NCBI GenBank assembly: GCA_018661705.1
Contig: JABJHR010000003.1
Coordinates: forward strand, 601-64,600
Source of the DNA: Candidatus Woesearchaeota archaeon
GTDB taxonomy: Archaea; Nanobdellota; Nanobdellia; Woesearchaeales; DSVV01
Direction: 5' to 3'
Length of the DNA: 64,000 nt
Shown piece after piece: positions 6,517 to 57,954 of the stretch. Position 1 is the stretch's first letter. Every line of letters begins with the position of its first letter. The translations under genes and the position numbers were made by a program. The notes under the pieces are model-generated. The model searched no databases. It had not been told where the DNA came from and saw only the letters and a program-made list of their open reading frames with translations.

Positions 6517-6539
6517 CAAGATAATAGATATAAAATACA

Positions 6540-10511: not shown

Positions 10512-10764
10512 TGTTCTAATTTAGAGATATATCTTTATATAAAGATTGTGGTGAAACATATATTTTCAATAATGAAAATAAATAAATAGATAAAAAAGTT
10601 TATATATAGATATAGATAACTATATGGTGTCGGTTACCATTAAAGTGTGACAAACAACATAGTGATTTGGTGATAATATCGCAGAAACAGTAATTGATTT
10701 TTCAAACATTGTACTTGATAGAGTTAGATCAGAGAATAGAGTAAGTGTTAGTTACCTTTGTGGC

Positions 10765-13828: not shown

Positions 13829-13916
13829 TTAATTTTTTTCTTTTTTAATTTTATTTTTAAAGATATAAATACCAATATAAGAATCAATAATAACAGAAAA
13901 ATCAATAAAAATTAAA

Positions 13917-14291: not shown

Positions 14292-14294
14292 GCA

Positions 14295-15035
14295 TTAATC
14301 TGCAAGGTTCCACGCCCCTCTTTCAAACAACACATAGTAAACTAACCAAACAACTAATCCAATTAATGCGGCAAATATTAAGGAATAAAACTTAAATTGG
14401 AAAAGGAAGATATAACCTATTAAAAAGAAGAGTATGATAATAAACCAATTTCTGTTTGCAAAAAACATATGTGTCCCATCATGCCTTGGGAAAGGCAGCA
14501 TTGCAAAAATAGCAAAGTACAAACAAATGAAAGTAACATGATTAAAAAAAGCAGATGCAACATTAAACAAAGCTAATGTCTTAAAAAAGGTTGCAACTAA
14601 AAGCAATGCTAAAGGGCCTGCAGCAGCTATAAAACCAGTTGTAAAATAATTTAATCCATACCTAAAATGCCCTAGTCTTAAAACTACCATGTGATGAAAT
14701 ATAATTCCTCCTGGTAAAACAACATATAATTTTCCTCCAGAAAGAATGGCAACAATTACACCGATTAACAAACCATTAGACCATTTTTTATATTCACAAG
14801 TAAAATTCATAAATAATGATGCGGCTTTATGAACAAAATCATAAACAAAAATAACACCACTCATAATCAAAATATGTTTTAAATAATTAAATAACCAATA
14901 ACTCAATGTAAAAGTTGGTTGTTTATCATTATACGCAAAAATGAAAGCTATAACTAATACAGTTATAACAAGATCTTGCACCTCTGCTTTTTTCCACCTA
15001 AGATGACGCCTTAATTTCATTAAATATTGGCCCAT
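14295..15035 (-). CDS. Polytopic membrane protein.
   Basis: About 7 hydrophobic helices. No clear protease (HExxH) motif. Confidence 0.4.
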   Translation of the reverse strand: MGQYLMKLRRHLRWKKAEVQDLVITVLVIAFIFAYNDKQPTFTLSYWLFNYLKHILIMSGVIFVYDFVHKAASLFMNFTCEYKKWSNGLLIGVIVAILSGGKLYVVLPGGIIFHHMVVLRLGHFRYGLNYFTTGFIAAAGPLALLLVATFFKTLALFNVASAFFNHVTFICLYFAIFAMLPFPRHDGTHMFFANRNWFIIILFFLIGYIFLFQFKFYSLIFAALIGLVVWLVYYVLFERGAWNLAD

Positions 15036-15364
15036 ATATCTATCTATTATATTAAGTATTTTTAAATATTGTGATATTTTATAGATATATTCTCTTTTTT
15101 ATAATAATATAGTAATAAGATAGTAAGGATATAATAAGAGTATACCATGAAAAAACAAAATTTAGTGAAAAAAATAGCATTCGCAATTGTTGAAGAATAT
15201 TTTACTTTATTTTCTATTATAAAAAACAACATGGCCAGATGATCCGAATAAAATGAGGCGAATAGGATATTTTCTGCAGGAAAAAGTCCGTCTATGCCAT
15301 GAATGTTGTTTTTTGTTCATTCATTATTTCTTAATAATACAACATATCAAATCAAAAACAAAAA

Positions 15365-16582
15365 TCATAAAGAATAATAATCTTGCAATACAATTTTATC
15401 AATTTCTTTAACATCTTTTACAACATATAATTTACCATTACCGGTTTCAGCTAATTTTTTTGCTAAAATCTTTCCTGGCTTATCAAGATTAATTCCAACT
15501 ACAGAAATAGTAATGCCATTCGCAGCAGCAATGTTAGCAGCATCCAAAGTTTCTTGTTGAGGATCTTTTCCAACTGTTGGCAAAGCATCTGTTAATATTA
15601 AAAGATGTTTTGTAACATCTTCTGCAGGAAACATATTAATTGCACGTTTAATTGTAACTCCAAAATCTGTTTCAGAGGTTGCTTTAATCACTGAAATTTC
15701 TTTAAGTAACATTAAAAAGTCATCTGTCGGCATTATTTCTTGTTTTATTTCTTTTCCAAACACCATTAATCCTACTTTGTCTTTTTCTTCAATTGCTTTA
15801 AACGCTAGAGAGATTCCTGCTTTTTTACACATGACTAGTTTCTCTCCTTTCATACTTCCACTACTATCCAAAGCATAAACAACATACACCTTTCCTTTAG
15901 CTTGTCTTTCAAAACTTTTTAGATCATTTATCTTTAAACTAGAATGGCCTCTTCTAATTGCAGTCTTAATTGATCTTTTCAATGCAACATCCCTATATCT
16001 ATCAGATTTTCTAAAAATTTTAGTATTTGTCTTACTACCATAAATATGATTCTTTTTATGAAACCTTTCTCCAAGAACACCTTTTGGGGTTAAATTATCA
16101 ATTTCTTCTGTGTATAAAATCAGACCAGCTAACTGAATTCCTTCGTCAGTGATTGTATTATTTTTATCAATAATTCCTTCTGCTTTAAGATCTCTTAATT
16201 GAGATTCCATTTTTCCTGCTAATTCTCTTTGAAACTCAGGAATTTTAATATTTTTTTCAATATATCTTGGATCATATCCACTAAAATATTTTATCAAAGA
16301 TTCACCATAAATATTTTTAGCTAATTTATAATTATCAACAAACTTTTCCATCATTAAATCTGGTGCAAAAGAAGTTATACCTTGGGTTAATGCACCCATA
16401 ATTAGTTTTCCATTATCAATAGTTTTTTTATCATTTTCCATGATAGAATTCATTAACTGGCTACCCTTACCTGGTTTTCCTTTTTGTTCAAAAGATGGCT
16501 CGGTTTTCTTAACCTTTGCCTTTTTACCTTTTTTTAATTTATCTACAGATTTATCACCCTGACACCTCGCCTTTCTTCTCAC
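15365..16582 (-). CDS. VWA-domain protein (ChlD-like partner of the AAA+ ATPase).
   Basis: MIDAS motif YALDSSGSM (DxSxS) in the C-terminal half, with a Lys-rich N-terminus. It overlaps the upstream ATPase gene by 29 nt. Confidence 0.7.
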   Translation of the reverse strand: MRRKARCQGDKSVDKLKKGKKAKVKKTEPSFEQKGKPGKGSQLMNSIMENDKKTIDNGKLIMGALTQGITSFAPDLMMEKFVDNYKLAKNIYGESLIKYFSGYDPRYIEKNIKIPEFQRELAGKMESQLRDLKAEGIIDKNNTITDEGIQLAGLILYTEEIDNLTPKGVLGERFHKKNHIYGSKTNTKIFRKSDRYRDVALKRSIKTAIRRGHSSLKINDLKSFERQAKGKVYVVYALDSSGSMKGEKLVMCKKAGISLAFKAIEEKDKVGLMVFGKEIKQEIMPTDDFLMLLKEISVIKATSETDFGVTIKRAINMFPAEDVTKHLLILTDALPTVGKDPQQETLDAANIAAANGITISVVGINLDKPGKILAKKLAETGNGKLYVVKDVKEIDKIVLQDYYSL

Positions 16583-19471: not shown

Positions 19472-20353
19472 TTAAGTACATCTTCCTTCTGAGCAACTAT
19501 TAGGACATTCCATGGTCGTATAACCAACACCACCATTTGAACCACATTTATACTCTTTCAAGGTTTTTCCATTTAAACAAGAATCAGAAACAAGACCTTG
19601 TGCACCAGATCCAGACATACCGCCCTTCACTACTCCTTTAACAGTAGGTTCTTCACCACCATCTGAATCAGTACATTTAACTGTTCGACATTTACCTTCT
19701 ACGCAACCAAAATCGCAAGATGCAATTTTAAAGTTAGCAAAACCATCTTTATCACAATAATGTTCTGTTAATTTTTTTGCTGAGATACATTTATCATTTT
19801 CATCAACTTGTTGTCCTTCTTTTTTTTGACCAGTGGTTGTACCAGTTTCAAAAACATTAAATCCATTATCTGTTTCTCGGCATAAGTCTTCTCCACATTG
19901 TCCCTCAGTACAACCATATTCACATTTTTGAAGATTATATGCTTTTTTGCTACAATCTGAAAACTGATAATACTTTTCTACAAAAATTCTACCGTGTGGA
20001 TCTTTGTTTTTCCCACAACGCTCTGTTCCAGGTAAATATCCGTCATCACAAAAACCTCGGTCTTTAATGTAAATTTCACAACCTTGATTACCTTCAATAA
20101 AACATTGACAATATTTGTCTTGTCGTTCATAAACTGGGGGGGGATATTCTTGTTCTGCTATATCTATACAATCTTGATAAGAACCTAATTGTTCAAAAGA
20201 CACTTCGGCAACAGCATAACCCTGCATTGCAAGTGTTGCTTTTCCAACAAAGGTCGGATTTGAACCAAGGATAGAAAAGACCAAAAGAATTGCAATAATC
20301 CCTACTAAAAATAAGAATATATTTGATATTTTTTGAAGTTTCATAATAATCAC
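19472..20353 (-). CDS. Secreted cysteine-rich protein (~30 Cys).
   Basis: N-terminal signal/TM MKLQKISNIFLFLVGIIAILLVFSILG, then repeated Cys spacings (C..C, CxxGxC). Confidence 0.5.
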   Translation of the reverse strand: MIIMKLQKISNIFLFLVGIIAILLVFSILGSNPTFVGKATLAMQGYAVAEVSFEQLGSYQDCIDIAEQEYPPPVYERQDKYCQCFIEGNQGCEIYIKDRGFCDDGYLPGTERCGKNKDPHGRIFVEKYYQFSDCSKKAYNLQKCEYGCTEGQCGEDLCRETDNGFNVFETGTTTGQKKEGQQVDENDKCISAKKLTEHYCDKDGFANFKIASCDFGCVEGKCRTVKCTDSDGGEEPTVKGVVKGGMSGSGAQGLVSDSCLNGKTLKEYKCGSNGGVGYTTMECPNSCSEGRCT

Positions 20354-44870: not shown

Positions 44871-45029
44871 ATGAAACTTAAAAAAAGCAAAAAAGCAGCA
44901 CATATGTGGTTAGAAGAAACAAGTAAATGGGTTTATATTATTGCTATTATGATAGGTTTGTTAGCAATCTTATTGTATTTTACTAGAAAAAACATAATGA
45001 ATCTAGTTTCAAGAATTATTTTTGGATAA
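44871..45029 (+). CDS. Small (52 aa) membrane protein with a KKAAH-hydrophobic N-terminus, the same N-terminal motif as the 51532 gene.
   Basis: MKLKKSKKAAHMWLEETSKWVYIIAIMIGLLAILLYF. Not in the ORF track (<60 aa). It sits at the head of the pilin-like locus. Confidence 0.35.
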   Translation: MKLKKSKKAAHMWLEETSKWVYIIAIMIGLLAILLYFTRKNIMNLVSRIIFG

Positions 45030-45105
45030 AATATAACAAGTTAATTACATTGGCTTAATCCTATACATCATTCGTTAAAAATTATTAAAAAAAAGGAATT
45101 AAAAA

Positions 45106-45648
45106 ATGAAAACAAAAAGAGGTATGACTTTTATTAGTTGGATTGTGATTGCAATACTTTGTGTTGCGTTTATTATGTTTGCCCCAGTTATGGTTAACAA
45201 GGTATATGAATTAACAAAAAGGTTTGAACTACCTGATAATGCAGAACAAAATCTTCTTCAACACCAACAAGATCAAGAACAAAAAAGTAATGCAAAAAAA
45301 GCTTTTGAAGCAGGACAGTATAATGAAGCAACACAAGGTTATCAACAATTGATTGATAGAGATTCAAATGGAAAAGAAGTTCAAACATCGTTATTTGAAA
45401 TTGCTAAATCATTCTATGAAACAGATAAAAAAGATAAATCAATGATGTATTATAGATTATACGTCGATACTAGTCCAGGTTATAATTTTAAAGTTAAGAT
45501 TGCATATCAAGATTTATTATCAATTTACAAAGAAAAAGGTATGGGAACAGAAACAACTGCTTTATTAAATAAATTTAAAGAAACATACCCAGAAAGAGAA
45601 TTTGAATTTAATGAATTAAGTAAAAACATTCCAGGTGATGCAAAATGA
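45106..45648 (+). CDS. Class-III-signal-peptide (prepilin-like) protein with TPR-like repeats.
   Basis: MKTKRG|MTFISWIVIAILCVAFIMF is [KR][KR]G followed by a hydrophobic helix. AFEAGQYNEATQGYQQLI and FEIAKSFYETDKKDKSMMYYRLYV are TPR-like. Confidence 0.5.
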   Translation: MKTKRGMTFISWIVIAILCVAFIMFAPVMVNKVYELTKRFELPDNAEQNLLQHQQDQEQKSNAKKAFEAGQYNEATQGYQQLIDRDSNGKEVQTSLFEIAKSFYETDKKDKSMMYYRLYVDTSPGYNFKVKIAYQDLLSIYKEKGMGTETTALLNKFKETYPEREFEFNELSKNIPGDAK

Positions 45649-46034
45649 ATAGAATAATGAAGAAAAAAAACAATAAAGCTCAAGGTTTAAGCTTAAATAT
45701 GGTTGCTAGTTCAGTTATTGTTTTAGTTGTTATAATTGTTATTATTATTATTTTCACAGGCAAATTCTCATTATTTTCTGGAAGTATAAGTGCTTGTGAA
45801 TCAAAGCCAGGTGCAAAATGTGTTCAAGAAAATAATTGCCCAAGTACTGAAACAACACCCCATTATTTTTCACAAAAAATGGATTTTAAATGTCCAGATT
45901 CTAGCCAAGTTTGTTGTTATAGCCAATGTAAAGCAATTAGTGGAATTTGTAAACCAAGTTGTGGAAATCCAATAAATGATCAAGGACCAGCAGACTGTAA
46001 AGGAAATAATATCTGTTGTAAAGAAAGTTCATAA
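45645..46034 (+). CDS. Pilin-like protein with a 10-Cys C-terminal domain (paralog A).
   Basis: KKKNNKAQG|LSLNMVASSVIVLVVIIVIIIIF class-III-type N-terminus, then a SACESKPGAKCV ... CCYSQCKAISGICKPSCG Cys-rich module. Confidence 0.6.
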   Translation: MNRIMKKKNNKAQGLSLNMVASSVIVLVVIIVIIIIFTGKFSLFSGSISACESKPGAKCVQENNCPSTETTPHYFSQKMDFKCPDSSQVCCYSQCKAISGICKPSCGNPINDQGPADCKGNNICCKESS

Positions 46035-46042
46035 ACTAAACG

Positions 46043-46423
46043 GTGATAATAATGAATTTTAAAAAACAAAATAAAAAAGCACAAGGACTAAGCTTAAATA
46101 CGGTTGCAAGTGCAGTGATTGTTCTTGTAGTAATTATTGTAATCATAATTATTTTTACAGGTAAAGCATCACTTTTTTCAGGAAGCGTAAGTGCTTGTGA
46201 TTCAAAACCAGGTGCAAAATGTGTTCCAGAAACTGAATGTCCAAAAAAAGCTGACAATGTATTTTATTCACAGAAATTAGACTTTAAATGTGGAGATAAA
46301 GATCTTGTTTGTTGTTATAGCCAGTGTAAAGCAATCAGTGGGAAATGTGAACAAAAATGTAAACCAGATGATGATGATGTAGGTCCGGCAGATTGTATTG
46401 ATGGAGAAACATGTTGCAAATAG
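46043..46423 (+). CDS. Pilin-like protein with a 10-Cys C-terminal domain (paralog B).
   Basis: KKQNKKAQG|LSLNTVASAVIVLVVIIVIIIIF, with the Cys spacing conserved relative to paralog A (SACDSKPGAKCV ... CCYSQCKAISGKCEQKC). Confidence 0.6.
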   Translation: MIIMNFKKQNKKAQGLSLNTVASAVIVLVVIIVIIIIFTGKASLFSGSVSACDSKPGAKCVPETECPKKADNVFYSQKLDFKCGDKDLVCCYSQCKAISGKCEQKCKPDDDDVGPADCIDGETCCK

Positions 46424-46469
46424 GAATTAATCTTAATTTTTTTCAATAAAAATAATAACAGGTGAAAAC

Positions 46470-46760
46470 ATGTCAAAAAAAGCATTAAGTTTACCACAAA
46501 CCGCAATTGTAGTCTTTATTGTATTATTAGTTTTTTTAGGTTTAAGCCTTGTTTTTCAAGGAAAAGGGTATGCGTTTGTCCAAAAAAACATATTAGGGGC
46601 AGAAAAATGTATCACACCATTAGATTGTTCCACAAGCCTTAATCCAGGGGCTGGCGAAGATAATGACGGGAATGGAGTATATGATGGACAAATCACAACA
46701 AAAGAGGGTGTGGTTGATTGTGGTGCAGCAAATACTTGTATTATGGGAAACGCCCCTTAA
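46470..46760 (+). CDS. Small pilin-like secreted protein.
   Basis: MSKKA|LSLPQTAIVVFIVLLVFLGLSLVF, with 4 Cys in the mature part. Confidence 0.5.
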   Translation: MSKKALSLPQTAIVVFIVLLVFLGLSLVFQGKGYAFVQKNILGAEKCITPLDCSTSLNPGAGEDNDGNGVYDGQITTKEGVVDCGAANTCIMGNAP

Positions 46761-46852
46761 CAAACCCATGTAAAAAATTAAAGAACAAAAAACATTCAAA
46801 ATTTAATATTAAAATTTTCAATTAAAAAATAGAAAGTTAGTAAAAAAGTAAA

Positions 46853-49021
46853 ATGTTTAAAAAAAGAGGTACGATTGATATAGAATTCTTAGTTAATTTA
46901 ATTAGAGGTGTCTTGGTTTTATTTGTATTATTTATTATTGCAGCCTCTATTTACAGCATTTTTATTTCTGACAATAATCAAGAAAGAGTTTATGAAAATT
47001 TTTTAGGTTTTGTTGAAATTATTGAGTATATGCCACCAAACAGCCATTTAACATATGCACTTGATTTAGGTGATCCTGAACAATATTCTATTGTTGATAC
47101 AATTACTATGGGTGGACCAATAATTCCACAGGAAGAAACAAATGGTGAATGTAGATTTAAAGATTGTTTATGTTTGTGTGAGGGTGTTAGAAAAAATTGT
47201 GAAAATCCAAGATGTGTAAGAGTAACCTCAAAGATTGGTGCAAATATTGATGCAAATGAATTAGATTTACACCAATTTTGGTCCTCATCAAAAGATTATG
47301 TGGAAATAAATTATTCAGAAAAAGAAAAAGAAATGATCATGCCCGCAAGAGTATTACTAAGAAGAACAGGTAATGAAGTTGCGATTTGTAGATACATACC
47401 TGGGGAGCCGCAAGTTCATGATTCTTGTTTAAGAAGGTTTGATGCTTCAATTGCAGATAGAATGTTAGATGATCTTTCTCAATCATTAGAAAGGTGTGGA
47501 AAAAATAGTGCTGTTAGTAGTTTATTAACACCAATTATTGACGAAAAAACAAAACAACAAACATTTGTAGAAAATATTTATCAATTTGATTCTGATACAA
47601 ATCAAGTTTGTAGACTTGAGACACAAGAAGATAAATTAGAAAAATCAGATTGTCACAAATTAGATAAACAAATTATTCCTAAATGGAATTTAAAGAGTGA
47701 AGATGAAACATATGACACAAGAGAAAATTTAGGTTATATGTTTTTATACAAAACAGGCCCAGGTAGTAACTATATTGTAAATTGTGATGAGATAGAAGAT
47801 CCAAGTAAATTTAATGATTATTATGCGGAGATTAATACAGAAATAACCAATAATAAATATTCAGTAGGATCTGGTTTTTGTATTGATGGCGATACACAAC
47901 AATTTTTATCAACAGTTCAAGAATTTAACATTAATTTTGAAACACAATCTGCCCAGGGACCAGATGCAGACATAATTTGTTGTGAAACAGACATAGAAGA
48001 ATACTATAGTGAGGAGGAAAAAAGCTTTGGTTGTTTAGAATGGACAGACTTAAACAATTTAATGTGTTTAGATATCCCAACACCATACAAATCAAAATCA
48101 AACCCTGATTCAGTTCAATATTGGCAAGATCCTGAAACAAATAAAATTTCTCTAGCAATGAATTCTTGTTTAAATAACTTTAATATTCCAAATTCAGCAA
48201 TGTGTAAAGAGGAGTATGAAACAACACAATTATCCCAATTTCTAAACGAATTAAACAATAAAAATATTAAATTAAAAGCCTATCTCAGAGTTCATGATAA
48301 TAGCCAAGTATATTTTTCAAAAACAATTCCAATCAAAAGAATAATAAAAACTCCAGACGGTGAAGAACTAGATTATGAAACTAATAAAGAATTATTTTCA
48401 GAATCTGAAATTCAAGAGATAATTAAAATAGGTAATTTAAATGGCCTAGATTTAAAAGAATTAGAAATTTATTTTGATTCATACACTACAATTGATGAAG
48501 GAGATTATCTTTACCTCATGCCACAATTATTTGAAGATGAAAGTAATAAAAACATAAACAAGATTAGTTTAACAACAGGAGAGATAATGCCTTTGTATGA
48601 TGAAGAAGGTATGAAAACTAAACAACAAGTATTTATTAAAGAAGAAATTCAAGATTTAATTAAAACACAAGGAAATGTGATTTGTAGGGAAGAAATTGAA
48701 AACACTTTACCTGCAGAAGCAATAAACACAGAAACTGGAGAGATTGAAATTAGTGCAACAGGTTATAGCCTAGTTATTGAAAAAAATAAAGCATATATTG
48801 AATATGAGGGAGTTAAAGGAACAGATATTGTTTTACCAACAAATCTTGATTGTGTAATTTATACCTTTGCTCCTGGCAGTAATGAAGAATATAAGTTTGA
48901 GTCAAATGCTCCAAGAATTACAATAACACCCGCTGACCAAAACCCAAATCCTGAAATAGTTGATATTGGAATAGGAGAACCTTGTTTATGGCTAAAAAAG
49001 CCACATATTGAATTTAAATAA
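46853..49021 (+). CDS. Large (722 aa) pilin-like / pseudopilin protein, Cys- and acidic-rich.
   Basis: MFKKRG|TIDIEFLVNLIRGVLVLFVLFII is a canonical prepilin-type motif (Gly, Glu at +5, then a hydrophobic helix). Confidence 0.55.
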   Translation: MFKKRGTIDIEFLVNLIRGVLVLFVLFIIAASIYSIFISDNNQERVYENFLGFVEIIEYMPPNSHLTYALDLGDPEQYSIVDTITMGGPIIPQEETNGECRFKDCLCLCEGVRKNCENPRCVRVTSKIGANIDANELDLHQFWSSSKDYVEINYSEKEKEMIMPARVLLRRTGNEVAICRYIPGEPQVHDSCLRRFDASIADRMLDDLSQSLERCGKNSAVSSLLTPIIDEKTKQQTFVENIYQFDSDTNQVCRLETQEDKLEKSDCHKLDKQIIPKWNLKSEDETYDTRENLGYMFLYKTGPGSNYIVNCDEIEDPSKFNDYYAEINTEITNNKYSVGSGFCIDGDTQQFLSTVQEFNINFETQSAQGPDADIICCETDIEEYYSEEEKSFGCLEWTDLNNLMCLDIPTPYKSKSNPDSVQYWQDPETNKISLAMNSCLNNFNIPNSAMCKEEYETTQLSQFLNELNNKNIKLKAYLRVHDNSQVYFSKTIPIKRIIKTPDGEELDYETNKELFSESEIQEIIKIGNLNGLDLKELEIYFDSYTTIDEGDYLYLMPQLFEDESNKNINKISLTTGEIMPLYDEEGMKTKQQVFIKEEIQDLIKTQGNVICREEIENTLPAEAINTETGEIEISATGYSLVIEKNKAYIEYEGVKGTDIVLPTNLDCVIYTFAPGSNEEYKFESNAPRITITPADQNPNPEIVDIGIGEPCLWLKKPHIEFK

Positions 49022-49205
49022 CCCCTGATACATTTTATGCATTATTTAATTCACTAAATTTTATGTTTATTAATAAAGATCTTTTCTTTTAATAAGATTA
49101 TAGCATATAGTTATATTACCATTATACTCTTATATCATTATAATGTATTTTACTCTTAAAGACATGAAAAACTATATAAATCTATAAATTAATTGATTTA
49201 TATAC

Positions 49206-50330
49206 ATGTTTAAAAATAAAAGGGGTATTACACTAGATAAAGTCTTTTTAGTAGAAGCTATACTCATTGTAGTTGTATGTGCCTCCATCATGGTTTACAT
49301 TGGAAATTTATATAATGATACTTCATTTGACAAAAGAATAATTGCAAGAGATCTTGCATTTTTAGCTGATTCTGCTCAATCTGTCCCGGGAAATTTATAT
49401 TACGAATATACATCTCCCTTGGGTAAAAAAGATCATTCATTTATTTTTTCAAAAAACACCGCAATAATTGCAGAAGGTTGGTTCGCAAAGGTGGGATATC
49501 CTTTTTTCTATAACAAAAACATGATGTTTGAGTCATTTCCAATTGCTTTCAAGAAAAGTTTTTCTATTAGTAATTTTAATAATGTTTTAGTAATATCTCC
49601 TGAAAAAAGATTTGGGTTAAAACAACCAAAAGATCAATTTTATGTGGAAACTCCTTCACAAACATATGAGATAAGTGAAACTAAACAAGTTGCTGAACAA
49701 ACATTAGAATGCACACCACCAAAACTAGAAACTAAATTTACATTTGACATAATTGCTATTGATGCTGATGGAAATTCAGATACACCAAAACAAAACATTG
49801 CGGGAACACAAGTAGAGCATTTAATAACACATGATATTTCAAAAGCAATAATAGAAGAATTAAACATAATTTTAGAAGGCATTATTATTGAAACAAGACC
49901 AGAAATAGATACAACATACGATACAGAATCAAAATTACTTCTTATTCCACCTTCAACAAGTTTTATTTTACAAATAAGTACTGAACAAACACAAAATCAA
50001 AACAATAATCCAGTATATGCTTATATTCCAAAGAATAGTGAACTAAGCAATTACCTTGCTTGCACCATATTACAAAATTTGAAAAAAGAATTGCCAGAAG
50101 TAATCACGGAAACAAAGATATTAACACAGAACCAAGAAGATAATTTATTGTTATATGCAAATAAAGATCCAACTGGTGTAAATACAAATAAACAAAATTT
50201 AGCTATAAAAATTGGAATAGGAAACATCCTGCATGATAATAATCTATTATATGAAAAAGAAACCACGAATATAATTGCTTATTCAATAGCTCAAAGTATT
50301 GAAGAATTTCAAGAATCAATTAACAACTAA
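49206..50330 (+). CDS. Pilin-like protein (374 aa).
   Basis: MFKNKRG|ITLDKVFLVEAILIVVVCASIMVYI. Confidence 0.5.
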   Translation: MFKNKRGITLDKVFLVEAILIVVVCASIMVYIGNLYNDTSFDKRIIARDLAFLADSAQSVPGNLYYEYTSPLGKKDHSFIFSKNTAIIAEGWFAKVGYPFFYNKNMMFESFPIAFKKSFSISNFNNVLVISPEKRFGLKQPKDQFYVETPSQTYEISETKQVAEQTLECTPPKLETKFTFDIIAIDADGNSDTPKQNIAGTQVEHLITHDISKAIIEELNIILEGIIIETRPEIDTTYDTESKLLLIPPSTSFILQISTEQTQNQNNNPVYAYIPKNSELSNYLACTILQNLKKELPEVITETKILTQNQEDNLLLYANKDPTGVNTNKQNLAIKIGIGNILHDNNLLYEKETTNIIAYSIAQSIEEFQESINN

Positions 50331-50355
50331 AAAAGTTTGGGAGACACAACATAAG

Positions 50356-50955
50356 ATGAACAAAGTTAAAATAAATAAAAAAATTGGAAAAATAGGGAAA
50401 AAATCACAATTAGCATACTTCCAACTAATGTTTTTGTTCATAAGAATTGCGGTTCTTTTATTGGTATTATTTTCAATTGTTATACTTGTTCATATGTTCA
50501 TAAATGAGAGTACAAATATACAAAAAGAGGAAATCAACATGTTTACAGAGTTTTTATTATACTCTAAACACGGACTAAGCCATTACGACAAACAAGCAGG
50601 TAGACTTTACCCTGGAATTTTAGATTATGCAGAGTTAACTAACACAGGTTTAATTCAAGCAAAATTAGATTATGCTTTTGATTATGGAGATTACAAAGTA
50701 ATGGCAATTAAATTTAAATTTAACAGTTTAGTACCAGAAGTATCCGAAATCCAAGAATTTTATTATAATAAAGAGAGATATGATGAGTGGTTACATTTAA
50801 CAGGACTTAAAGCACGAATCACAAAACAGTTTGTTACAAAAAAACAAAGAACTGTTAATGTTATCATCAGAAAAGAAATTGAAATAGAAGGAATAATTAA
50901 AGAACAGTTTTTCCCTACAAAATTAGAATTAACAATGCTAAGCCCAAACACATAA
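50356..50955 (+). CDS. Pilin-like protein.
   Basis: MNKVKINKKIGKIGKKS|QLAYFQLMFLFIRIAVLLLVLF. The start is placed at the internal ATG (50356) just after the upstream stop. Confidence 0.45.
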   Translation: MNKVKINKKIGKIGKKSQLAYFQLMFLFIRIAVLLLVLFSIVILVHMFINESTNIQKEEINMFTEFLLYSKHGLSHYDKQAGRLYPGILDYAELTNTGLIQAKLDYAFDYGDYKVMAIKFKFNSLVPEVSEIQEFYYNKERYDEWLHLTGLKARITKQFVTKKQRTVNVIIRKEIEIEGIIKEQFFPTKLELTMLSPNT

Positions 50956-50967
50956 GAGAATTAAAAA

Positions 50968-51507
50968 ATGATAAAAAACAAAAAAGCACAAGAAACAATT
51001 ACAACAGATGCAATAGTTACACTTTTAATTGTTGTAGTGATTACTATGAGCTTTTTTTATGTAAATCTATTACCACATAACAAAGTAGAGAATAAAATTG
51101 AAGCCGATTATGAGGATTTAGAATCAAGAAGAGAATTATTTACATTACTAAAAACCCCATTAGACACACCATTTGAATCAGACTACGGAAATTCAGCAGA
51201 TAATAACTTTGCAAGCCTAATTGTTAAGTATCATCATTCTGAAGGTGATGTAAAACAAGAGTATAAAACAAAAGTTCAAGAATTCATTAAATCCTATACT
51301 CAAGAAAAAAGTCTTTGCTTTAATTTAGTAATAAGTGCAGATAATGATTATGAAACAGAGTTTATTGGTGATAATTCCATTTGTACAGAATATTATTTAG
51401 ATTATATTTCCATAAATGAACTTATTGCACATTTACCAACATTAGACTCAGAAAAAACAATCATGGTTGAAATGATGAAAACTAGATTTAAGGTTTGGGA
51501 AGGCTAG
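50968..51507 (+). CDS. Pilin-like protein.
   Basis: MIKNKKA|QETITTDAIVTLLIVVVITMSFFYV. Confidence 0.5.
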   Translation: MIKNKKAQETITTDAIVTLLIVVVITMSFFYVNLLPHNKVENKIEADYEDLESRRELFTLLKTPLDTPFESDYGNSADNNFASLIVKYHHSEGDVKQEYKTKVQEFIKSYTQEKSLCFNLVISADNDYETEFIGDNSICTEYYLDYISINELIAHLPTLDSEKTIMVEMMKTRFKVWEG

Positions 51508-51531
51508 TGTAAGAAGAAAAGAAAAAATCAA

Positions 51532-52851
51532 ATGAAAAAAATAAAAACAAACACCAAAATTTGGAAAAACAAAAAAGCAGCACACGTGTTTATGTTAATC
51601 TTATTAGGAATTACAATAATTGCATTTGCATCACTAATAGGAATTTTAAACATAAAATTAGGGCACGTAAAGCCTCTTGGTGAAGCCCCAATAACAATTT
51701 TCAAGGCTGTTCATGAGGGAGAGGATATATTAAATTATGTTGATGAAGGGGCAAAACATGCCGTAAGACAAGCAGAGTTTGACCTTGCAATGCAAGGCGG
51801 CGTATTAACATCTGGTTGTGGAAATCTAAACGGAATTAATTATTGGTATAAAGATGGGAAATTATGCATGCCAAAACAATACAAAGAAGATTTTAAGCAG
51901 ATTTTGTCTCAAAACTTGAATGTTGGTTATTACATTAAAACATCTGGATTAGACATTCCAACAAATAACTATGAAATAAAAATTCTCCCAAACAAAGTCT
52001 TAGGATTGGCAAAAAAAGAAATTGTTATTGATGGAACAAGAGTAGAAGTTCCGACAACTTTTAGTTATAATGTAGAATCCACTAATGCAGCAATAGAAAA
52101 AGATAAATTAGAGCAAACAAAAACACCTTCAAGCAATTTAATAACTGAAAATAAAGAACAAGGTAAAGAGAATATTATTTTACTGGGACAAGAATGCCAA
52201 ATCACTAATTTTATTTTAGATTCTGAATCATTATGGTATAACAATGCAGGGGGCATTAAAAATGCTGCAATGATTGAGGAATCAACTGAATATTACTACA
52301 ATCCAAATTATCATCGTAACAAGTTTTATGGTACAATAGAAATGGTAAATATGCTAGAAAAAGCAAGCTGCATTACAAAAGAACTTACAGGAGCAAGAAC
52401 TAGAATACACGATCTTAGCGCAAAGCAAGGAGGAAAAATTGGTCACAGATCACATCAAAACGGAAGAGATGTTGATACAGGTATTTTAAAAAACAGTGGT
52501 GGAAAAATCACATCTGTATTTAAAAATTTAAATGGTTCTAAAATAGATCTTTTTGATGCAAAAGCAAACTGGATATTCCTTAAAGCAATTTATTTATCTG
52601 CAAATATTGAAATGATAGGAACAGACAAAGAATTTATTGATAAGCTAAAATCATATACAGAACAAAATGAACCAGATAAAGAACTTGCAGCTAATATCAT
52701 TAAAAAATTATCTTATTGGAAGGGTCATGCAGATCATTACCACATTAGAATTTATTGTAGCCCAGAAGATAAAATGTGCAAAGACGGGTCTGCTAAAAGC
52801 TCAGAAAAAGCATACTGGAAAAACCAAGTAGAGGAGTATTTGGAAACATGA
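51532..52851 (+). CDS. Membrane-anchored LAS-family zinc peptidase, a homolog of MepA (peptidase M74, penicillin-insensitive murein DD-endopeptidase).
   Basis: IGHRSHQNGRDVD (SHQ.G.DVD zinc-ligand motif) and GHADHYHIRIY (H.DH.HVR motif), the two MepA/LAS signatures. N-terminus KNKKAAH|VFMLILLGITIIAFASLIGIL. Confidence 0.6.
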   Translation: MKKIKTNTKIWKNKKAAHVFMLILLGITIIAFASLIGILNIKLGHVKPLGEAPITIFKAVHEGEDILNYVDEGAKHAVRQAEFDLAMQGGVLTSGCGNLNGINYWYKDGKLCMPKQYKEDFKQILSQNLNVGYYIKTSGLDIPTNNYEIKILPNKVLGLAKKEIVIDGTRVEVPTTFSYNVESTNAAIEKDKLEQTKTPSSNLITENKEQGKENIILLGQECQITNFILDSESLWYNNAGGIKNAAMIEESTEYYYNPNYHRNKFYGTIEMVNMLEKASCITKELTGARTRIHDLSAKQGGKIGHRSHQNGRDVDTGILKNSGGKITSVFKNLNGSKIDLFDAKANWIFLKAIYLSANIEMIGTDKEFIDKLKSYTEQNEPDKELAANIIKKLSYWKGHADHYHIRIYCSPEDKMCKDGSAKSSEKAYWKNQVEEYLET

Positions 52852-54080
52852 GAAAAACCAAGTTTAAAACATTAGTTCAAACAATATTGGCATGCGTATT
52901 ACTCACAATGTTAATGTTTGTAGTTTCAACTACTATTTTTGGCGAAGAAATCATGTATATTGAAATCAATGAAGAAGACAACCTAAAAACCCTTAAAATC
53001 CTCGATGACTCAAATTTATTTTACTTATTTGGAGAGGATGAAGAAATTTACATAGGGGAGTTAGGAGAAGAAAGTTCATTAGAAAAGAAATTTATTGTTG
53101 AAGTAACAGATCAATTCAAAAAAACAATTTTAAAAGAAGAATTTAGTGATACAACAATATATATCCCTTACAACAAGAATATAAGACACATAAAAGCCTC
53201 AACATTTGGCCCTCAAATTCAAGAGAAGATAATAATAAACAAGGAATTCAATTTTTGTAACCAAAATAACATTTGTGAACCGTGTTTTGATAAAACCTGG
53301 TGTGAAGTAATGGAAAACTTTGTTTCTTGCCCAGAAGATTGTAATTCTGGCAGTAACGATAATTATTGTGATTTAGAACAAGATAGTGTATGTGATCCTG
53401 ACTGTATTAACACAAATGAAAATAATGTTGACAAAGACTGTGAATCCTGCCAAATATCTGATTATACCTTAGAAGGATATGAAAACATAGAAGAATTACA
53501 GGAAGAAACAAACAAACAAGAAATAACTCAAAGTAAAACATGCTATTACAACAATCTTAATCATCATTGTATGTTTGAATATAATGGTGTAAAATGCAAT
53601 AAAAAACAACATTGTTCAAATGGGGAATGGATTACACTTGAGGACAATACCGCATGTTGCTTAGAAGGATACTGTTTAGATGATGAAATACTAGCAATAA
53701 ACACACTAGAAGAAGAAAATTCATATCCTGCTGAAAAAAAAATAGAACCAACCATTAATATTGAAAAATATAAAGATTTTGGAACAGAACAAAAAGATTA
53801 TATTGGAACAATTATTTTATTTAGTATAATTATTTTGATAATTATAATAACTGGAACCCTGTTATTGTTTTATGAAATTAAAAAATCTAATGGTCATCAA
53901 GCTTCACCAGTGAAAAATAAATTACGGGCAAATGAATTAATCAGAACAATAAATGAATTACATTCCAAAGGAATGAATTATTCTAAAATTAAACAACATT
54001 TGATTAGAAGAGGATATTATGAAGAAGAAATAGATAATTACCTAAATCATCATCATTCTTCAAATAAAAATCACAATTAA
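52848..54080 (+). CDS. Type-I membrane protein with an extracellular Cys-rich acidic domain.
   Basis: N-terminal signal anchor, Cys-rich middle (CEPCFDKTWCEVMENFVSCPEDC ...), a TM near residue 330 (IGTIILFSIIILIIIITGTLLLF), and a basic/His-rich tail. 4-nt overlap with the upstream gene. Confidence 0.5.
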   Translation: MRKTKFKTLVQTILACVLLTMLMFVVSTTIFGEEIMYIEINEEDNLKTLKILDDSNLFYLFGEDEEIYIGELGEESSLEKKFIVEVTDQFKKTILKEEFSDTTIYIPYNKNIRHIKASTFGPQIQEKIIINKEFNFCNQNNICEPCFDKTWCEVMENFVSCPEDCNSGSNDNYCDLEQDSVCDPDCINTNENNVDKDCESCQISDYTLEGYENIEELQEETNKQEITQSKTCYYNNLNHHCMFEYNGVKCNKKQHCSNGEWITLEDNTACCLEGYCLDDEILAINTLEEENSYPAEKKIEPTINIEKYKDFGTEQKDYIGTIILFSIIILIIIITGTLLLFYEIKKSNGHQASPVKNKLRANELIRTINELHSKGMNYSKIKQHLIRRGYYEEEIDNYLNHHHSSNKNHN

Positions 54081-54111
54081 AAATTAATATGATTATAACA
54101 GTTTAAAAAAA

Positions 54112-57100
54112 ATGAAAAAACAAAAAATAAAATTAGAAGGCAAGCAGTTATTTGTTATAGCCTTAATTGCAATTTTCATAGTTGCCAGCATATTATTTTT
54201 AAGTGATTCAACAACAAATGTAGATAAAAATCTTATTGGAAAAGCCACCACTACCCAAAATCAATATCCGGAAGATTATAAAGTCGTGTTTCTTTCTGAC
54301 ACACATGTATCATTAAATGGTGGAGTTAGACAAGACTTTAAAGATGCTGTACAAGCCACACTAAAATTAAATCCAAATATGGTTGTAGTATTAGGTGATA
54401 TGGTTAATGGTGGAAGAAGTTCAACAAGCACAATAAAAATTCAATCTGCATGGGAGAAGTTTGATGAAACAATACTGCCTTTAATAGATGCAGGCATTGC
54501 CGTATTTCCTGTTGTTGGAAATCATGATGCCGCTTATACAGATGAACTAGAACAAGGTTACAAAAAACATTGGCAATCATACACAACCCCAATATCATTA
54601 AAAAGTGGAGTTATGAATAATTATTATAGTTTTGAATATAGTGGGGATTTACATATTGTGCTTTATGTTCCAAACAGAATAAAACATGATAAGCAACAAT
54701 TAAATTGGTTAGATGAACAATTAACACAAGCACATACATTAAATCAATTAACAAATGAAAAACCGTATAGAAATGTTTTCTTATACACTCACAAACCAAT
54801 TATAACAATTAGTCCGCAATCAAGCCAACTTTATACCAAAGAGTTAGGAGAGATTATTAAAAATAGAATTTCTGCTGTTTTTTCTGGCCATGATCATGTT
54901 GTTGGGGTAACAATTATTGCAGATACAAACGTCCCACAATTTATTATTGGAACAACAAGTGGTGCCCTTGGAAGAAGAAACAGCGATGGTGTTTTAAAAC
55001 CATACACTGATTTAGAAGGAAACTCATACCAAAATACCTTTGGGTATATGGAGATTAACTCTCAAGGCTACCAAGTTACAAATATAGAAGAACCATTTGA
55101 TCAATTAACATCAGCAATAGGTTATACACCAGGAATTCCACAACCAAAAGATTGTAAGGACATGATTGGTTATGAACACATGCCAAAAATTCCAGAAGTT
55201 GATAAATTTGATAATGAATTTTTTGAAGAGTATATGAAAAAGATTTCTGAATATGAACCATACATACAAGAATTATATGAAAATGAGAAATATCAAATTA
55301 GACCCGAATTAATTAAAGCAATTATGGTTCCTGAAAGCAGAGGTAATGTGTATAGAAATAAAAAATACAAAAAAATTGATAATGCTGGCAATAAAATTGA
55401 ACCAACTGCAAAAGTATTATGCAACGGTAGGTGCAAACAGTGTAATTTTTGTGGGGGTCCAGGTGATGCTGAATTGTGCATGGAAAACAGCAAAGAATGT
55501 ATTTATTATGATAAAAACACATGGGAAAAAAGCATTAGTTCTTCTTGTGGTTTCTGTAGTTTGATGCAAACTAACATAGGCAAATGTGAAGACGTAGAAG
55601 AATGTGATGTAGAAAGATTCCTTGCAGGAAATCCCAGAGATGCAATTTTCTCTTCTGCAAAGTACATAAAAATGATTATGCAATCTTACAAGAACACAGT
55701 AAAAACAGTAACAAATAATAAACTTCCAGAACACAATTATTATTGGGCAATTGGTTTTGCTTACAACAATGGCCCCGGTAGTTTAAAAGTTGCAATTAAA
55801 GAGATTACTAAAAACAAATATGGGGGAGATTATTCTAGATTTAATTGGTGGGAATTAACAAAAGAGGATTTTGAACCAATCATGCAACATTTTTCACCAC
55901 ATGTTTCTGTAAAAGATCCCCTTGGCAGAGTTTTGTATGCGTTGCGTGTACTAAAAATTCTTCAACACCAAAACTTTAAAGATTGCGGACAACCAAATGC
56001 AAATTTTAAATCAATAACAGAAACAACAACAAAAGAATTAAGTACACCAGATACTATCTACATGGATATTGAAGATCAATTTGTTTATCAAGTAGATCCC
56101 AGCTTTAGTATTCCTTTAACACATGATCTTGACGTATATGTAAGATTAAGAGAAAAAGTATTTTTAATTGCAAAAGAAGTGGAAGATTGTCATGAAAGTG
56201 AAAAATATTTGGTAGAGGTTATTAGTAAAAACACATATGATAAATGCATGACAAAAGTCATTTCAAATAATGCAGAAATAAACTTACCGCCAAAATTAAA
56301 ATTAGAAATATGTGAAACACATGACACCATTCCAAATTATGGTTTATGTTTTGAATCAAAAGAGAAAGTATTTGTGAAAACCAAAGACAAATACTCAATA
56401 CAACAATTAACATACAAGATAGCATTAGGTTTTGATATACCAGAACTAAAAAACAAGGAAATTAAGAATAAAGAAATAAAAATACAAGGAGCCCAAACAC
56501 AGTACGCAAGTGGCGATACAATAAATTACGACGACAAGATTTCATTTACTGAAACAACCCACAATAATAAAGAGACATTAATTATTTCATTAGATCCTAA
56601 ACATTTTGACATAAAAGTAGAAAGTGCAAAAACAATTACAGGGAATCAAAAAGCAACACTAAAAGAAATGGTTGAGAAAACGGGTGCAATTGCAGCCATC
56701 ACTGGTGGTTTTTTTAATGTAAACACTGCAGAAGCAGGTAAAAAATGTTCAAGACCAGAAAAACGAAGTGAACCACTTGGATTGGTTGTTGAAAATTCCA
56801 ATACTTTAAGTGAAATGTTTAATATGGATTGGGATTGTCATTTAATGCAACAAGGAACAATTGATCCGCACCATATTTTTGTTGTTGATAAAGAATCACC
56901 AGATGAATTTATAATTGAGAGAGAAGAATATAACACAAACTATTTTGACTCAAACACTCCCAATTATGCGCTTCAATCTGGAGCATTAATTTATAATAAT
57001 GAACTTTTGGAATGTCCGTTCTCTAAGTCTTTTTGTACATCTTCACCAAAAAGAACTCTTCTTTGTATTACAACAGACAATAAAATAAAATTAATGGTGT

Positions 57101-57954
57101 TTCAATCATTAGCTTTAACAAAACTTCCATCTTGGATAATTGAAGATTGTAAAGATTTACTTAATTTAGATGGTGGTGGTTCAACATCCATGGAATACAG
57201 GCAAGGAGAGTATCATTCTGTACAATGGGAACACAATAAATATGAAGATGGCCAATTAGTAAAAAAGAAAGAAAATCATTTTACAACACAATCAACAACA
57301 GATGGGGGAAGATCTATTGTTAATGGAATATTTATTTATCCAAAAAAAGAACAAAACAAAGATTCAGAATCTACAACAACTTCTGAAGAAAGAAAGATTG
57401 CTGTTTTTGGTGGTTCAGTTGTAGCTCAAGCCACAAGTAATGACAATTCTGTAGAGGACTTTATTACAAGATTAAATACAAAAAACATTGGTGAAATAAC
57501 GGGATATGGTGACTATATTGTTGAGAGCGGCGATATAAAATCAACATTATTAACAACACTAGATCAAAATCCCGATAATGAATATCATGAAATTTTAATT
57601 TTAGCTGAATCAGATAATGTTTGTGAAAGCTGGGAAATAGTTAAAGAAGATTTACAAGATATGTACACTTATGCTAAGAAATCTAAAAATCTGCGTGTTG
57701 GAGCATTAACTGCGTTACCATTTAAAGGACATTTCTCTTGGAAACCAAAATGTCAAGAAGGCCTTGAAGCTTTAAACAACTGGATAATGCAAGAAGCAAT
57801 TGATGTTGATTTTAGAGTAGATCTTTATACAAAACTAGTAGATCCAAATGATAACCAAAAAATAGCTGATTCTTTAACAGTAGATTTTTATCATCCTAAC
57901 AGTTTAGGACATGAAAGAATTACTGATGAAATTCTTCTAATAGGTTATTCATAA
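54112..57954 (+). CDS. Giant (1280 aa) membrane-anchored multidomain cell-wall hydrolase: metallophosphoesterase, SLT lytic transglycosylase, DUF2233/phosphodiester-glycosidase-like and SGNH esterase.
   Basis: N-terminal TM (LFVIALIAIFIVASILFL). Phosphoesterase motifs VVFLSDTHV, VLGDMVNGG, GNHD, GHDH. SLT motifs AIMVPES...GFCSLMQ...FAYNNGPG (ES / LMQ / AYNxGPG) with a Cys-rich insertion. AAITGGFFN...NLDGGGSTS (DUF2233 LDGGGS motif). C-terminal SGNH: IAVFGGS ... FYHPNSLGHERI (GDS-like block I and DxxH-like block V). Confidence 0.6.
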   Translation: MKKQKIKLEGKQLFVIALIAIFIVASILFLSDSTTNVDKNLIGKATTTQNQYPEDYKVVFLSDTHVSLNGGVRQDFKDAVQATLKLNPNMVVVLGDMVNGGRSSTSTIKIQSAWEKFDETILPLIDAGIAVFPVVGNHDAAYTDELEQGYKKHWQSYTTPISLKSGVMNNYYSFEYSGDLHIVLYVPNRIKHDKQQLNWLDEQLTQAHTLNQLTNEKPYRNVFLYTHKPIITISPQSSQLYTKELGEIIKNRISAVFSGHDHVVGVTIIADTNVPQFIIGTTSGALGRRNSDGVLKPYTDLEGNSYQNTFGYMEINSQGYQVTNIEEPFDQLTSAIGYTPGIPQPKDCKDMIGYEHMPKIPEVDKFDNEFFEEYMKKISEYEPYIQELYENEKYQIRPELIKAIMVPESRGNVYRNKKYKKIDNAGNKIEPTAKVLCNGRCKQCNFCGGPGDAELCMENSKECIYYDKNTWEKSISSSCGFCSLMQTNIGKCEDVEECDVERFLAGNPRDAIFSSAKYIKMIMQSYKNTVKTVTNNKLPEHNYYWAIGFAYNNGPGSLKVAIKEITKNKYGGDYSRFNWWELTKEDFEPIMQHFSPHVSVKDPLGRVLYALRVLKILQHQNFKDCGQPNANFKSITETTTKELSTPDTIYMDIEDQFVYQVDPSFSIPLTHDLDVYVRLREKVFLIAKEVEDCHESEKYLVEVISKNTYDKCMTKVISNNAEINLPPKLKLEICETHDTIPNYGLCFESKEKVFVKTKDKYSIQQLTYKIALGFDIPELKNKEIKNKEIKIQGAQTQYASGDTINYDDKISFTETTHNNKETLIISLDPKHFDIKVESAKTITGNQKATLKEMVEKTGAIAAITGGFFNVNTAEAGKKCSRPEKRSEPLGLVVENSNTLSEMFNMDWDCHLMQQGTIDPHHIFVVDKESPDEFIIEREEYNTNYFDSNTPNYALQSGALIYNNELLECPFSKSFCTSSPKRTLLCITTDNKIKLMVFQSLALTKLPSWIIEDCKDLLNLDGGGSTSMEYRQGEYHSVQWEHNKYEDGQLVKKKENHFTTQSTTDGGRSIVNGIFIYPKKEQNKDSESTTTSEERKIAVFGGSVVAQATSNDNSVEDFITRLNTKNIGEITGYGDYIVESGDIKSTLLTTLDQNPDNEYHEILILAESDNVCESWEIVKEDLQDMYTYAKKSKNLRVGALTALPFKGHFSWKPKCQEGLEALNNWIMQEAIDVDFRVDLYTKLVDPNDNQKIADSLTVDFYHPNSLGHERITDEILLIGYS

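Follow-up and report, generated by a model that had tools for sequence, protein, structure and literature searches.

A conserved cluster of candidate type IV filament subunits and predicted peptidoglycan-targeting enzymes in Woesearchaeota

Introduction

Modular type IV pilins are known from bacteria, where those of Streptococcus sanguinis, PilB and PilC, carry vWA or lectin adhesin modules (Raynaud et al. 2021, PMC8179133). Here we analyse a stretch of 64,000 nucleotides from Candidatus Woesearchaeota archaeon (contig JABJHR010000003.1; hereafter the window), in which twelve genes at positions 44871-57954 may encode something of this kind in an archaeon. At slightly better than an even chance, in our judgement, this locus encodes the subunits of an archaeal type IV filament, with modular subunits and co-encoded enzymes that target bacterial peptidoglycan. 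The pattern of carrier plus module matches the modular pilin principle of bacteria (PMC8179133). Yet the modules found here are predicted murein hydrolases or have their folds, the leader is of the form [KR][KR][G/A/S] and lacks N-methyl-Phe and (but for w722, below) E5, and two carrier families stand in one cluster.

Two archaeal systems are also close. Like the loci of 'system 1' or Epd-like pili of methanogens and some DPANN (PMC4858521; bioRxiv 10.64898/2026.04.22.720090), the locus has many diverse pilin-like proteins, Gln is often the first residue after the putative cleavage site (KKA/Q, KRG/Q; a slash marks this site throughout), and one relative of the locus comes with a T2SSE-family ATPase, a polytopic membrane protein and an A24 peptidase. 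Contrary to these pili, the subunit cluster of the window is detached from any ATPase or platform and has murein-hydrolase modules. No archaeal system described so far is known to include such modules, and peptidoglycan and hydrolases are not mentioned in these surveys of archaeal type IV filaments. The bindosome of Sulfolobus (Bas; PMC3047682) similarly has functional non-filament proteins with class III signals that are co-encoded with small pilin-like proteins, but its cargo consists of sugar-binding proteins for uptake, and it has its own BasEF ATPase and membrane protein and no hydrolases.

A 'large lytic murein transglycosylase' has been reported in Woesearchaeota and predation on bacteria suggested (Castelle 2015 AR20, as cited by Vigneron 2022, PMC9723730). 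The last protein of the locus is of this same kind and invites the same inference of an attack on the wall. The passages of PMC9723730 and Castelle 2015 on this enzyme treat it alone, as a CAZy GH23 member, and mention neither a pilin-like cluster nor M74, M23 or Amidase_3 partners nor carriers. Woesearchaeota, pilins and peptidoglycan were not combined in the literature that we searched. Since the published reports lack the context of a pilin cluster, what appears to be new is that the enzymes are embedded in a conserved pilin-like cluster, that there are two families of carriers and that the cluster can be linked to filament machinery.

Results

All twelve genes of the locus are on the + strand, with successive gaps of 76, -4, 17, 46, 92, 184, 25, 12, 24, -4 and 31 nucleotides. 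An initial annotation of this DNA had described a co-directional + strand locus with 4-nucleotide overlaps at 45645 and 52848, and both overlaps were recovered from the open reading frames. Two of its gene starts, 46043 and 50299, are likely to be 46052 and 50356 instead (both ATG), as called in public assemblies. The genes are the following.

44871..45029, + strand: w52, mini membrane protein of 52 residues with a KSKKA leader, one helix and a C-terminal ...FG
45106..45648, + strand: w180, 180 residues, class III-like N-terminus KRG/MTF and TPR domain
45645..46034, + strand: w129, 129 residues, small Cys-rich pilin-like protein, NKA/QGLSLN, candidate major subunit
46052..46423, + strand: w123, 123 residues, tandem paralog of w129
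46470..46760, + strand: w96, 96 residues, pilin-like, KKA/LSLPQ
46853..49021, + strand: w722, 722 residues, large pilin-like protein, KRG/TIDIE, 22 Cys, candidate adhesin or tip protein
49206..50330, + strand: w374, 374 residues, pilin-like module (1-131), disordered linker (138-163) and Amidase_3-fold module (182-373)
50356..50955, + strand: w199, 199 residues, pilin-like, KKS/QLAYF
50968..51507, + strand: w179, 179 residues, pilin-like, KKA/QETIT
51532..52851, + strand: w439, 439 residues, KKA/AHVF, carrier N-domain (about 12-206) and Peptidase_M74 (MepA/LAS) module (222-439)
52848..54080, + strand: w410, 410 residues, accessory membrane protein with Sec-type signal peptide, Cys-rich ectodomain, C-terminal transmembrane segment and cytoplasmic tail
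54112..57954, + strand: w1280, multi-enzyme protein of 1280 residues with signal anchor, Metallophos, SLT/GH23, NAGPA and SGNH-like modules

Ten of the twelve proteins start with a Lys/Arg-rich leader of 3-17 residues that ends in [KR][G/A/S]. Next comes a semi-polar stretch, in which Q, S, E or D are frequent, and after it a hydrophobic helix. The initial annotation had recognised this combination of [KR][GAS] and helix but had counted only eight such products. Besides L007 and L010 (below), related loci were collected by a metagenome scan and by context look-ups (L011, L013-L016, L018-L020 and L024), and we ran a simple detector of [KR][GAS] leaders on the cluster genes of ten related loci and on their flanking genes. 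Of 124 cluster proteins 105 have the motif, and of 81 flanking genes 9 (Fisher p=6e-17, first six loci). When only proteins whose N-terminus includes a hydrophobic stretch are considered, the counts are 49 of 60 in the clusters and 9 of 25 in the flanks (p=8e-5). What the detector picks up in the control proteins are first helices of polytopic proteins, and since some controls pass in such a Lys-rich proteome, the leader motif alone is not proof. In the w374 family, [KR][KR][G/A/S] occurs near the start of all 43 aligned members, at a mean column identity of 22%. Judged from these sequences, the N-termini of the locus behave like a class III-like motif under constraint. This motif is not the generic export signal of the organism, since the Sec signal peptides of w410 and of two LTD-domain proteins of the window outside the locus are of the ordinary kind, with A-x-A-type sites. 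The spacing G/xxxxE, which had been ascribed to two proteins, is found only in w722 (KRG/TIDIE, G-1/E+5), as w374 has an Asp at +4; Glu at +5 is restricted to w722 and its L007 ortholog (KKG/LIDLE).

The link of this cluster to filament machinery comes from L014, the most distant of the lineages by RPA. Directly upstream of its cluster is a gene for a T2SSE-family ATPase of 769 residues (E=1.2e-14, Walker A GTRSSGKTS), overlapped by a gene for a polytopic protein of 712 residues that is presumably the platform, and about 4 kb downstream of the cluster lies a gene with Peptidase_A24 and Arc_PepC matches and both catalytic Asp motifs. We built hidden Markov models (HMMs) of the cluster families without any L014 sequence. 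They match exactly six L014 genes, in the order of the window (E=5e-14 to 8e-5), and nothing else among 252 open reading frames, decoys from the window included. Three of these families are located in L014 as follows.

8035-8187: w52 family, HMM E=6.7e-5
10347-10847: w199 family, HMM E=5e-14
10840-11325: w179 family, HMM E=7.8e-5

Six collinear families behind a filament ATPase are the strongest evidence that the cluster of the window supplies the subunits of a type IV filament system. Hydrolase modules are absent from L014, and for this reason the hydrolases look as if they had been added to a pilin cluster that already existed, and not like something needed for its assembly.

The architecture of modular pilins, i.e. 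a pilin module, a linker and a module that is not specific to pilus biology, is seen in w374. An exhaustive HMMER search with this protein gave 157 cluster representatives; the family statistics are from an alignment of 43 members, of which a subset of 10 sequences was used for the metagenome scan. After the helix the family has a conserved region (DNTLFEK..ARDLALL...QS.PG). An AlphaFold2 model made from the family alignment (predicted local distance difference test, pLDDT, of 86.4) has a long kinked helix (12-59) that packs against a sheet of seven strands (64-131), a linker (138-163) with pLDDT below 50 and an alpha/beta domain (182-373). With Foldseek the latter matches CwlD, AmiC2, CwlV, AmiB and LytH (E=1e-10 to 1e-8, target TM-scores of 0.73-0.80), which places the modelled C-terminal domain firmly in the Amidase_3 fold. 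For the N-module, Foldseek returned only long-helix proteasome subunits at E>=0.05. In a fold comparison against a library of 48,164 chains, pilins or pseudopilins account for about 17 of its top 60 matches, with the T2SS pseudopilins EpsI (5.3) and GspI (4.9) and the modular minor pilin PilB of S. sanguinis (4.8) next-ranked and a Shewanella pilin, XcpV, PilV, PilX, PilE, ComP and EpsG among the further ones. The pilin fold of the modelled N-module is thus supported but not proven. In this family the acidic residue of the N-terminus (mostly Glu, 'L[IV]E'; residues 17-20 of w374) lies within the hydrophobic helix, some 10 residues past the [KR]G, and may be the counterpart of the bacterial pilin E5 in a different register.

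Amidase_3 is matched by 19 of the 43 family members (best E 5e-19), and NCBI annotates several of them as N-acetylmuramoyl-L-alanine amidase of Woesearchaeota. The residues H-E-H-E are kept in 8 of the 43. Across loci, the w374-type module is found with an active-looking or degenerate Amidase_3 or alone (L014, L024).

The second carrier is the N-domain of w439. Its Peptidase_M74 module is recognised by Pfam (E=1.8e-16, residues 238-423, 60.9 bits for a cut-off of 25) and by NCBIfam (9.5e-17). In an alignment to E. coli MepA (1TZP), GHRSHQNGRDVD (residue 304) and HADHYH (residue 399) are conserved, so both metal and catalytic motifs (H-x-x-H...D and H-x-x-H-x-H) are intact as in MepA. Unlike MepA, however, this module is fused behind a carrier domain of 200 residues with a pilin-type N-terminus. 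Elsewhere the same N-domain is joined to other modules or stands alone.

Window: N-domain with M74
L007: N-domain with PGA_cap and M74
L013 and L015: N-domain with Peptidase_M23 (E=3.5e-24 and 1.9e-29)
L018: N-domain with SLT
L019: N-domain with an unrecognised module
L014, L016 and L020: N-domain alone

The N-domain thus resembles a carrier whose wall-cutting modules can be exchanged, and it is from this swapping of domains that we infer the modular-pilin architecture of w439. Over the lineages the carrier positions are occupied by Amidase_3, M23, M74, M15_4, SLT and possibly NlpC/P60. Because five or six unrelated families of murein-specific enzymes occur at the same positions, murein is likely to be their common substrate. 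When four cluster families were compared locally, profile against profile, no relationship emerged between their globular parts, and only the N-terminal segments aligned.

The large w1280, which NCBI names 'transglycosylase SLT domain-containing protein', closes the cluster with Metallophos (57-263), SLT (about 400-565), a conserved region up to about 790, NAGPA (858-1075) and an SGNH-like module (1099-1280). SLT has 25.1 bits for a gathering score of 21.3 (E=1.4e-5). It keeps the E-S (408), LMQ (484) and AYNNG (550) of family-1 lytic transglycosylases (SLT/GH23), as does the L007 ortholog, but departs from them in that about 60 Cys-rich residues are inserted between E-S and LMQ and in that it is part of a five-module protein. 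The SLT domains of L015 and L018 are stronger (5e-18). The assignments of M74 and SLT in the initial annotation are therefore upheld, both profiles passing the Pfam cut-offs with intact catalytic motifs. Of the three further hydrolase domains that it had proposed, Metallophos (E=3e-18, 67.3 bits, cut-off 21.5) and NAGPA (E=3.4e-12, 47.3 bits, cut-off 25) pass and Lipase_GDSL_2 does not (E=0.014, 16.4, cut-off 32.9), although GxS (FGGSV, 1099) and DxxH (DFYHPN, 1258) can be seen by eye. It had also suggested prepilin-type N-termini shared by the hydrolases. This fits w439 (KKA/AHVF) but not w1280, whose EGKQ/LF differs among orthologs and shows no conserved [KR][GAS]; w1280 is better read, from its sequence, as signal-anchored, with an N-terminus that is not convincingly class III. 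Neither is w410 of the class III type, since it has an ordinary Sec-type signal peptide (...TTIFG/EE) and a C-terminal transmembrane segment at about residue 315. It has 19 Cys and no family match, and its orthologs are in L007 (34%) and L015.

Among the small subunits, w129 is the most conserved protein of the cluster, 61% identical to its L007 ortholog. It forms with w123 a tandem duplication (45645-46423) of 68% identity, with 12 Cys in each copy. The family has 2-5 copies per related locus, with the consensus KKAQGLSLNT, a helix and four nearly invariant Cys. When PDB sequences were searched with a profile of these small proteins, only generic transmembrane-helix matches came up. For w180, TPR_6 is slightly under the cut-off (E=2.5e-5); its L007 ortholog has TPR_6 at 9e-9 and the N-terminus KKA/QE, and L018 has a TPR protein of 671 residues at a similar position. 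The L007 ortholog of w96 is 29% identical (KKA/QLSIPQ). Orthologs of w52 (41-52 residues) are at the same position in L007, L014-L016 and L018-L020, those of w199 are in L007, L011, L013-L016 and L018-L020, and w179 has an ortholog by position in every related locus. Searches of the homolog index that used w199 and the SLT region as queries gave almost no matches. The large w722, at NCBI the hypothetical protein HN695_04715, has no match in Pfam, NCBIfam or PHROG.

Synteny of the locus of the initial annotation is conserved among nine or more diverged Woesearchaeota-like lineages, as a rule next to RPA. The families common to the related loci come in the order w52-like, small Cys proteins of the type K[KR][AG]/QG[IL]S[LI]N, w374-like, w199-like, w179-like and w439-N-domain-like, after which a large enzyme often ends the cluster; in the window, L007 and L015 this last protein has SLT. 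RPA lies downstream in L013, L014, L016, L018 and L019, and YdjM does so too in L013, L014, L018 and L019; the identity of RPA among these lineages is 37-58%. L007, found through its M74 protein, belongs with L010 to the same organism, Candidatus Woesearchaeota archaeon SI047_bin3. It has collinear orthologs of all eleven genes in the same slot, with PCNA and RNase J on one side and RPA and YdjM on the other. Leader motifs are retained in it (KKA/Q, KRG/I, KKG/L, KKS/M), and identities to the window are 29-61% for cluster proteins and 75-85% for flanking genes, so the cluster evolves fast, as expected for surface or interaction proteins. Its modules also differ: its w374 ortholog (871 residues) has a near-threshold Amidase_3 and a C-terminal Peptidase_M15_4, its M74 protein has an inserted PGA_cap, and its last protein has SLT without Metallophos and NAGPA.

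Some further features of these loci were recorded. Two regions of L007 without Pfam match (6098-8713 and 13469-15910) have G-H-S-x-G-G elbows (IKGHSGGG, FMGHSNGG), which suggests that both large L007 proteins carry alpha/beta-hydrolase (esterase) modules in place of the NAGPA and SGNH of the window. The last cluster gene of L024 (12569-16021; Woesearchaeota-like metagenome-assembled genome GCA_043826135.1) encodes 1150 residues with weak NlpC/P60, Amidase_6 and beta-lactamase-like matches and is followed by GyrA instead of RPA. In L016 a giant surface protein of 5589 residues with CarboxypepD_reg/Big_13 repeats directly precedes the cluster (1-1903). Sequons (N-X-S/T) are strongly depleted in the locus of the window (5 for 37 expected from shuffles, P=5e-11, none in w1280) and not in other proteins of the window, two secreted ones included (72 for 80). 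Eight related loci have 69 for 148 expected and their flanks 57 for 63, and the depletion depends on the lineage, being absent in L016 and L019. Archaeal surface filaments are normally heavily N-glycosylated, and such a depletion is unusual for them.

The surroundings of the locus are archaeal housekeeping genes: PCNA and RNase J upstream on the - strand, RPA and a YdjM-family protein downstream, and GyrA, RadA, a DnaG-like protein and wyosine genes farther out. The proteins are found identically at NCBI under Candidatus Woesearchaeota archaeon (locus tags HN695_047xx) and in at least 24 independent assemblies, chiefly of samples from marine oxygen-minimum zones (longest contig 922 kb). Such identical copies indicate that the sequence is real and that the initial annotation was right in seeing a DPANN archaeon, as NCBI assigns these exact proteins to Candidatus Woesearchaeota. 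Rfam and tRNA scans of the window gave no match.

Elsewhere in the window are several other proteins of the cell surface or membrane. An open reading frame of at least 1233 residues on the - strand (1-3700) leaves the left end of the window; it starts with a transmembrane or signal segment (MKQRINKTTGVGFILLVLIVAVVF...), lies in a region of higher GC (0.32-0.36) and strongly negative GC skew, and is probably a giant surface protein. A protein of 442 residues (7588-8916, +) has a classic Sec signal peptide (...GTANA/AD), no Pfam match and an odd composition, its C-terminal part being rich in Gly, Thr and aromatic residues. Another of 293 residues (19472-20353, -), secreted or anchored, has about 30 Cys and no family match. 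Two adjacent polytopic proteins at 13917-15035 on the - strand (124 residues with 3 transmembrane helices; 246 residues with 6) have KKA before their first helices and no family match. They were considered as cryptic prepilin peptidases and rejected, having neither a GxGD motif nor an A24 match.

Discussion

The initial annotation had proposed a pilus-coupled locus that attacks murein, and this main thrust is strengthened by the conserved leader motif, by the machinery of L014 and by the motifs of the enzymes. If the locus is indeed a subunit cluster of a type IV filament, the ten proteins with [KR][KR][G/A/S] leaders would enter the membrane, where an A24 prepilin peptidase from another part of the genome would cut them. 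Judging by their size, copy number and conservation, the duplicated and disulfide-rich w129 and w123 would form the shaft, and w96, w180, w199, w179 and w52 would be minor or priming subunits. By analogy with bacterial modular pilins, w374 (as a murein-binding pseudo-amidase), w439 (as an M74 endopeptidase of cross-links) and w722 (adhesin-like) might be displayed on or at the tip of a filament or short pseudopilus. The membrane-anchored w1280 would add lytic transglycosylase, phosphoesterase, phosphodiester-glycosidase and esterase modules, with w410 as a putative accessory membrane protein. Bacterial murein would thereby be bound and locally digested, leading to attachment, access to the membrane or lysis. 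Archaea of this group are not known to make murein.

A number of observations weigh against such a filament. Curated pilin models (Pfam Pilin_N and Class_IIIsignal; NCBIfam) have no match above cut-off in the locus: the best is that of w129 to Pilin_N (E=0.023, 16 bits for a cut-off of 25.2), and NCBIfam has no class III or pilin match for the locus proteins. KK[AG] also precedes the first transmembrane helix of a few unrelated polytopic proteins of the window. In the w374 family the conserved acidic residue is at about +10 and not at +5; E5 is not required in archaeal pilins. The C-module of w374 itself has G-E-S-G at the four catalytic and zinc positions and no Pfam match. With its zinc ligands lost, it is probably a pseudo-enzyme in this organism, murein-binding or regulatory, which its sequence and model make a member of the fold and probably not of the enzyme class. 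As the initial annotation had noted for the window, no ATPase, platform or prepilin peptidase was found in its 64 kb, nor in the 10 kb to its right, which hold pyrimidine genes and unknowns. There is likewise no ATPase or platform within 10 kb of the cluster in L016, L018-L020 and L024. An adjacent ATPase is thus seen in one of about ten lineages, the very one that lacks hydrolase modules, and there the 712-residue protein matches T2SSF at just E=0.36.

One might therefore ask whether the leaders are anything more than the Lys/Arg-rich N-termini of ordinary type II signal-anchor proteins, shaped by the positive-inside rule in an AT-rich and Lys-rich genome, with no processing and no filament. 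Lys makes up 10.5% of the window proteins, G/A/S follow [KR][KR] by chance in 21% of cases, the detector accepts 9 of the 25 controls in which the N-terminus has a hydrophobic stretch, and the curated models are silent. Nevertheless, a residue G/A/S after basic residues is kept throughout the 43 members of the w374 family and in the orthologs of all ten proteins, the motif is followed by a semi-polar Q/E/D/S spacer as in archaeal pilins, the model of w374 supports a pilin-like fold for its N-module, and the L014 orthologs adjoin an ATPase and an A24 peptidase. We consider signal anchors quite improbable. More serious, although still on the unlikely side, is a display of proteins on the surface, plain or bindosome-like, by means of class III signals, the enzymes serving to kill competitors or to scavenge murein and necromass with no breaching of a host. 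Eight to 15 small pilin-like genes, multi-copy shaft-like subunits among them, exceed the needs of anchoring, and the orthologous cluster of L014 sits behind a filament ATPase; Woesearchaeota genomes are moreover reduced and thought to be partner-dependent (PMC9723730). But class III signals are found on non-filament proteins of Sulfolobus (PMC3047682), archaeal murein hydrolases that kill bacteria have been documented (PMC12352652), w1280 resembles a simple signal-anchored enzyme, and most lineages have no ATPase next to the cluster.

Two further readings concern the enzymes. Specialised lytic transglycosylases accompany type II, III and IV secretion and pilus systems of bacteria, and the hydrolases might by the same token be self-directed autolysins making space for filament assembly in the producer's own wall. 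We regard this as very improbable, given that no murein synthesis genes were found within the 64-kb window, that murein synthesis in Woesearchaeota is not reported in the literature searched, that the cluster of L014 has machinery but no hydrolases, and that up to four distinct wall-cutting activities per locus go far beyond the need. We give still less credence, practically none, to the idea that a virus or another mobile element with a lysis cassette left its remains here. Amidase_3, M23, SLT and M15 are indeed typical of phage endolysins. Yet the window has no integrase, capsid gene or tRNA, the base composition of the locus equals that of the rest of the window (GC 0.294 and 0.300) in DNA that is poor in GC all along (about 0.30), and the slot beside RPA is fixed across lineages with 37-58% identity in that protein. 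A prophage origin was rejected because the only PHROGs match is that of a generic metallophosphoesterase module.

Given a type IV filament cluster that targets bacterial peptidoglycan, what might it be for? That it breaches the wall of a host, instead of killing competitors or scavenging murein, is suggested by the small genomes and presumed dependence on partners, by the lack of murein synthesis genes in the window and of reports of murein synthesis by this group in the literature searched, and by the analogy with type IV pili. Such pili occur in bacterial episymbionts and predators. One may then picture a 'wall-drilling pilus', the tip or minor subunits of which bind and cut murein so that these ultrasmall archaea attach to bacteria and open their walls. 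We hold this idea tentatively and put its chances below even. If true, it would be the first molecular apparatus for parasitism or predation by an archaeon on bacteria, and the swappable modules would follow the differences in wall chemistry among bacterial partners.

The hosts and lifestyle of most DPANN archaea are unknown, and the notion that Woesearchaeota attack bacteria has so far rested on isolated matches to lytic transglycosylases. The locus gives this notion a testable form, in a conserved cluster with candidate filament subunits and two carriers with exchangeable wall-cutting modules, and it yields clear predictions on cleavage sites, enzyme substrates and localisation. The principle of modular pilins would come to cover archaea as well as bacteria, and enzymatic attack as well as adhesion. 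In addition, the content in modules, i.e. an endopeptidase of meso-diaminopimelate (mDAP)-type cross-links, M23, SLT or amidase, could serve as a fingerprint of the cell wall of the partner.

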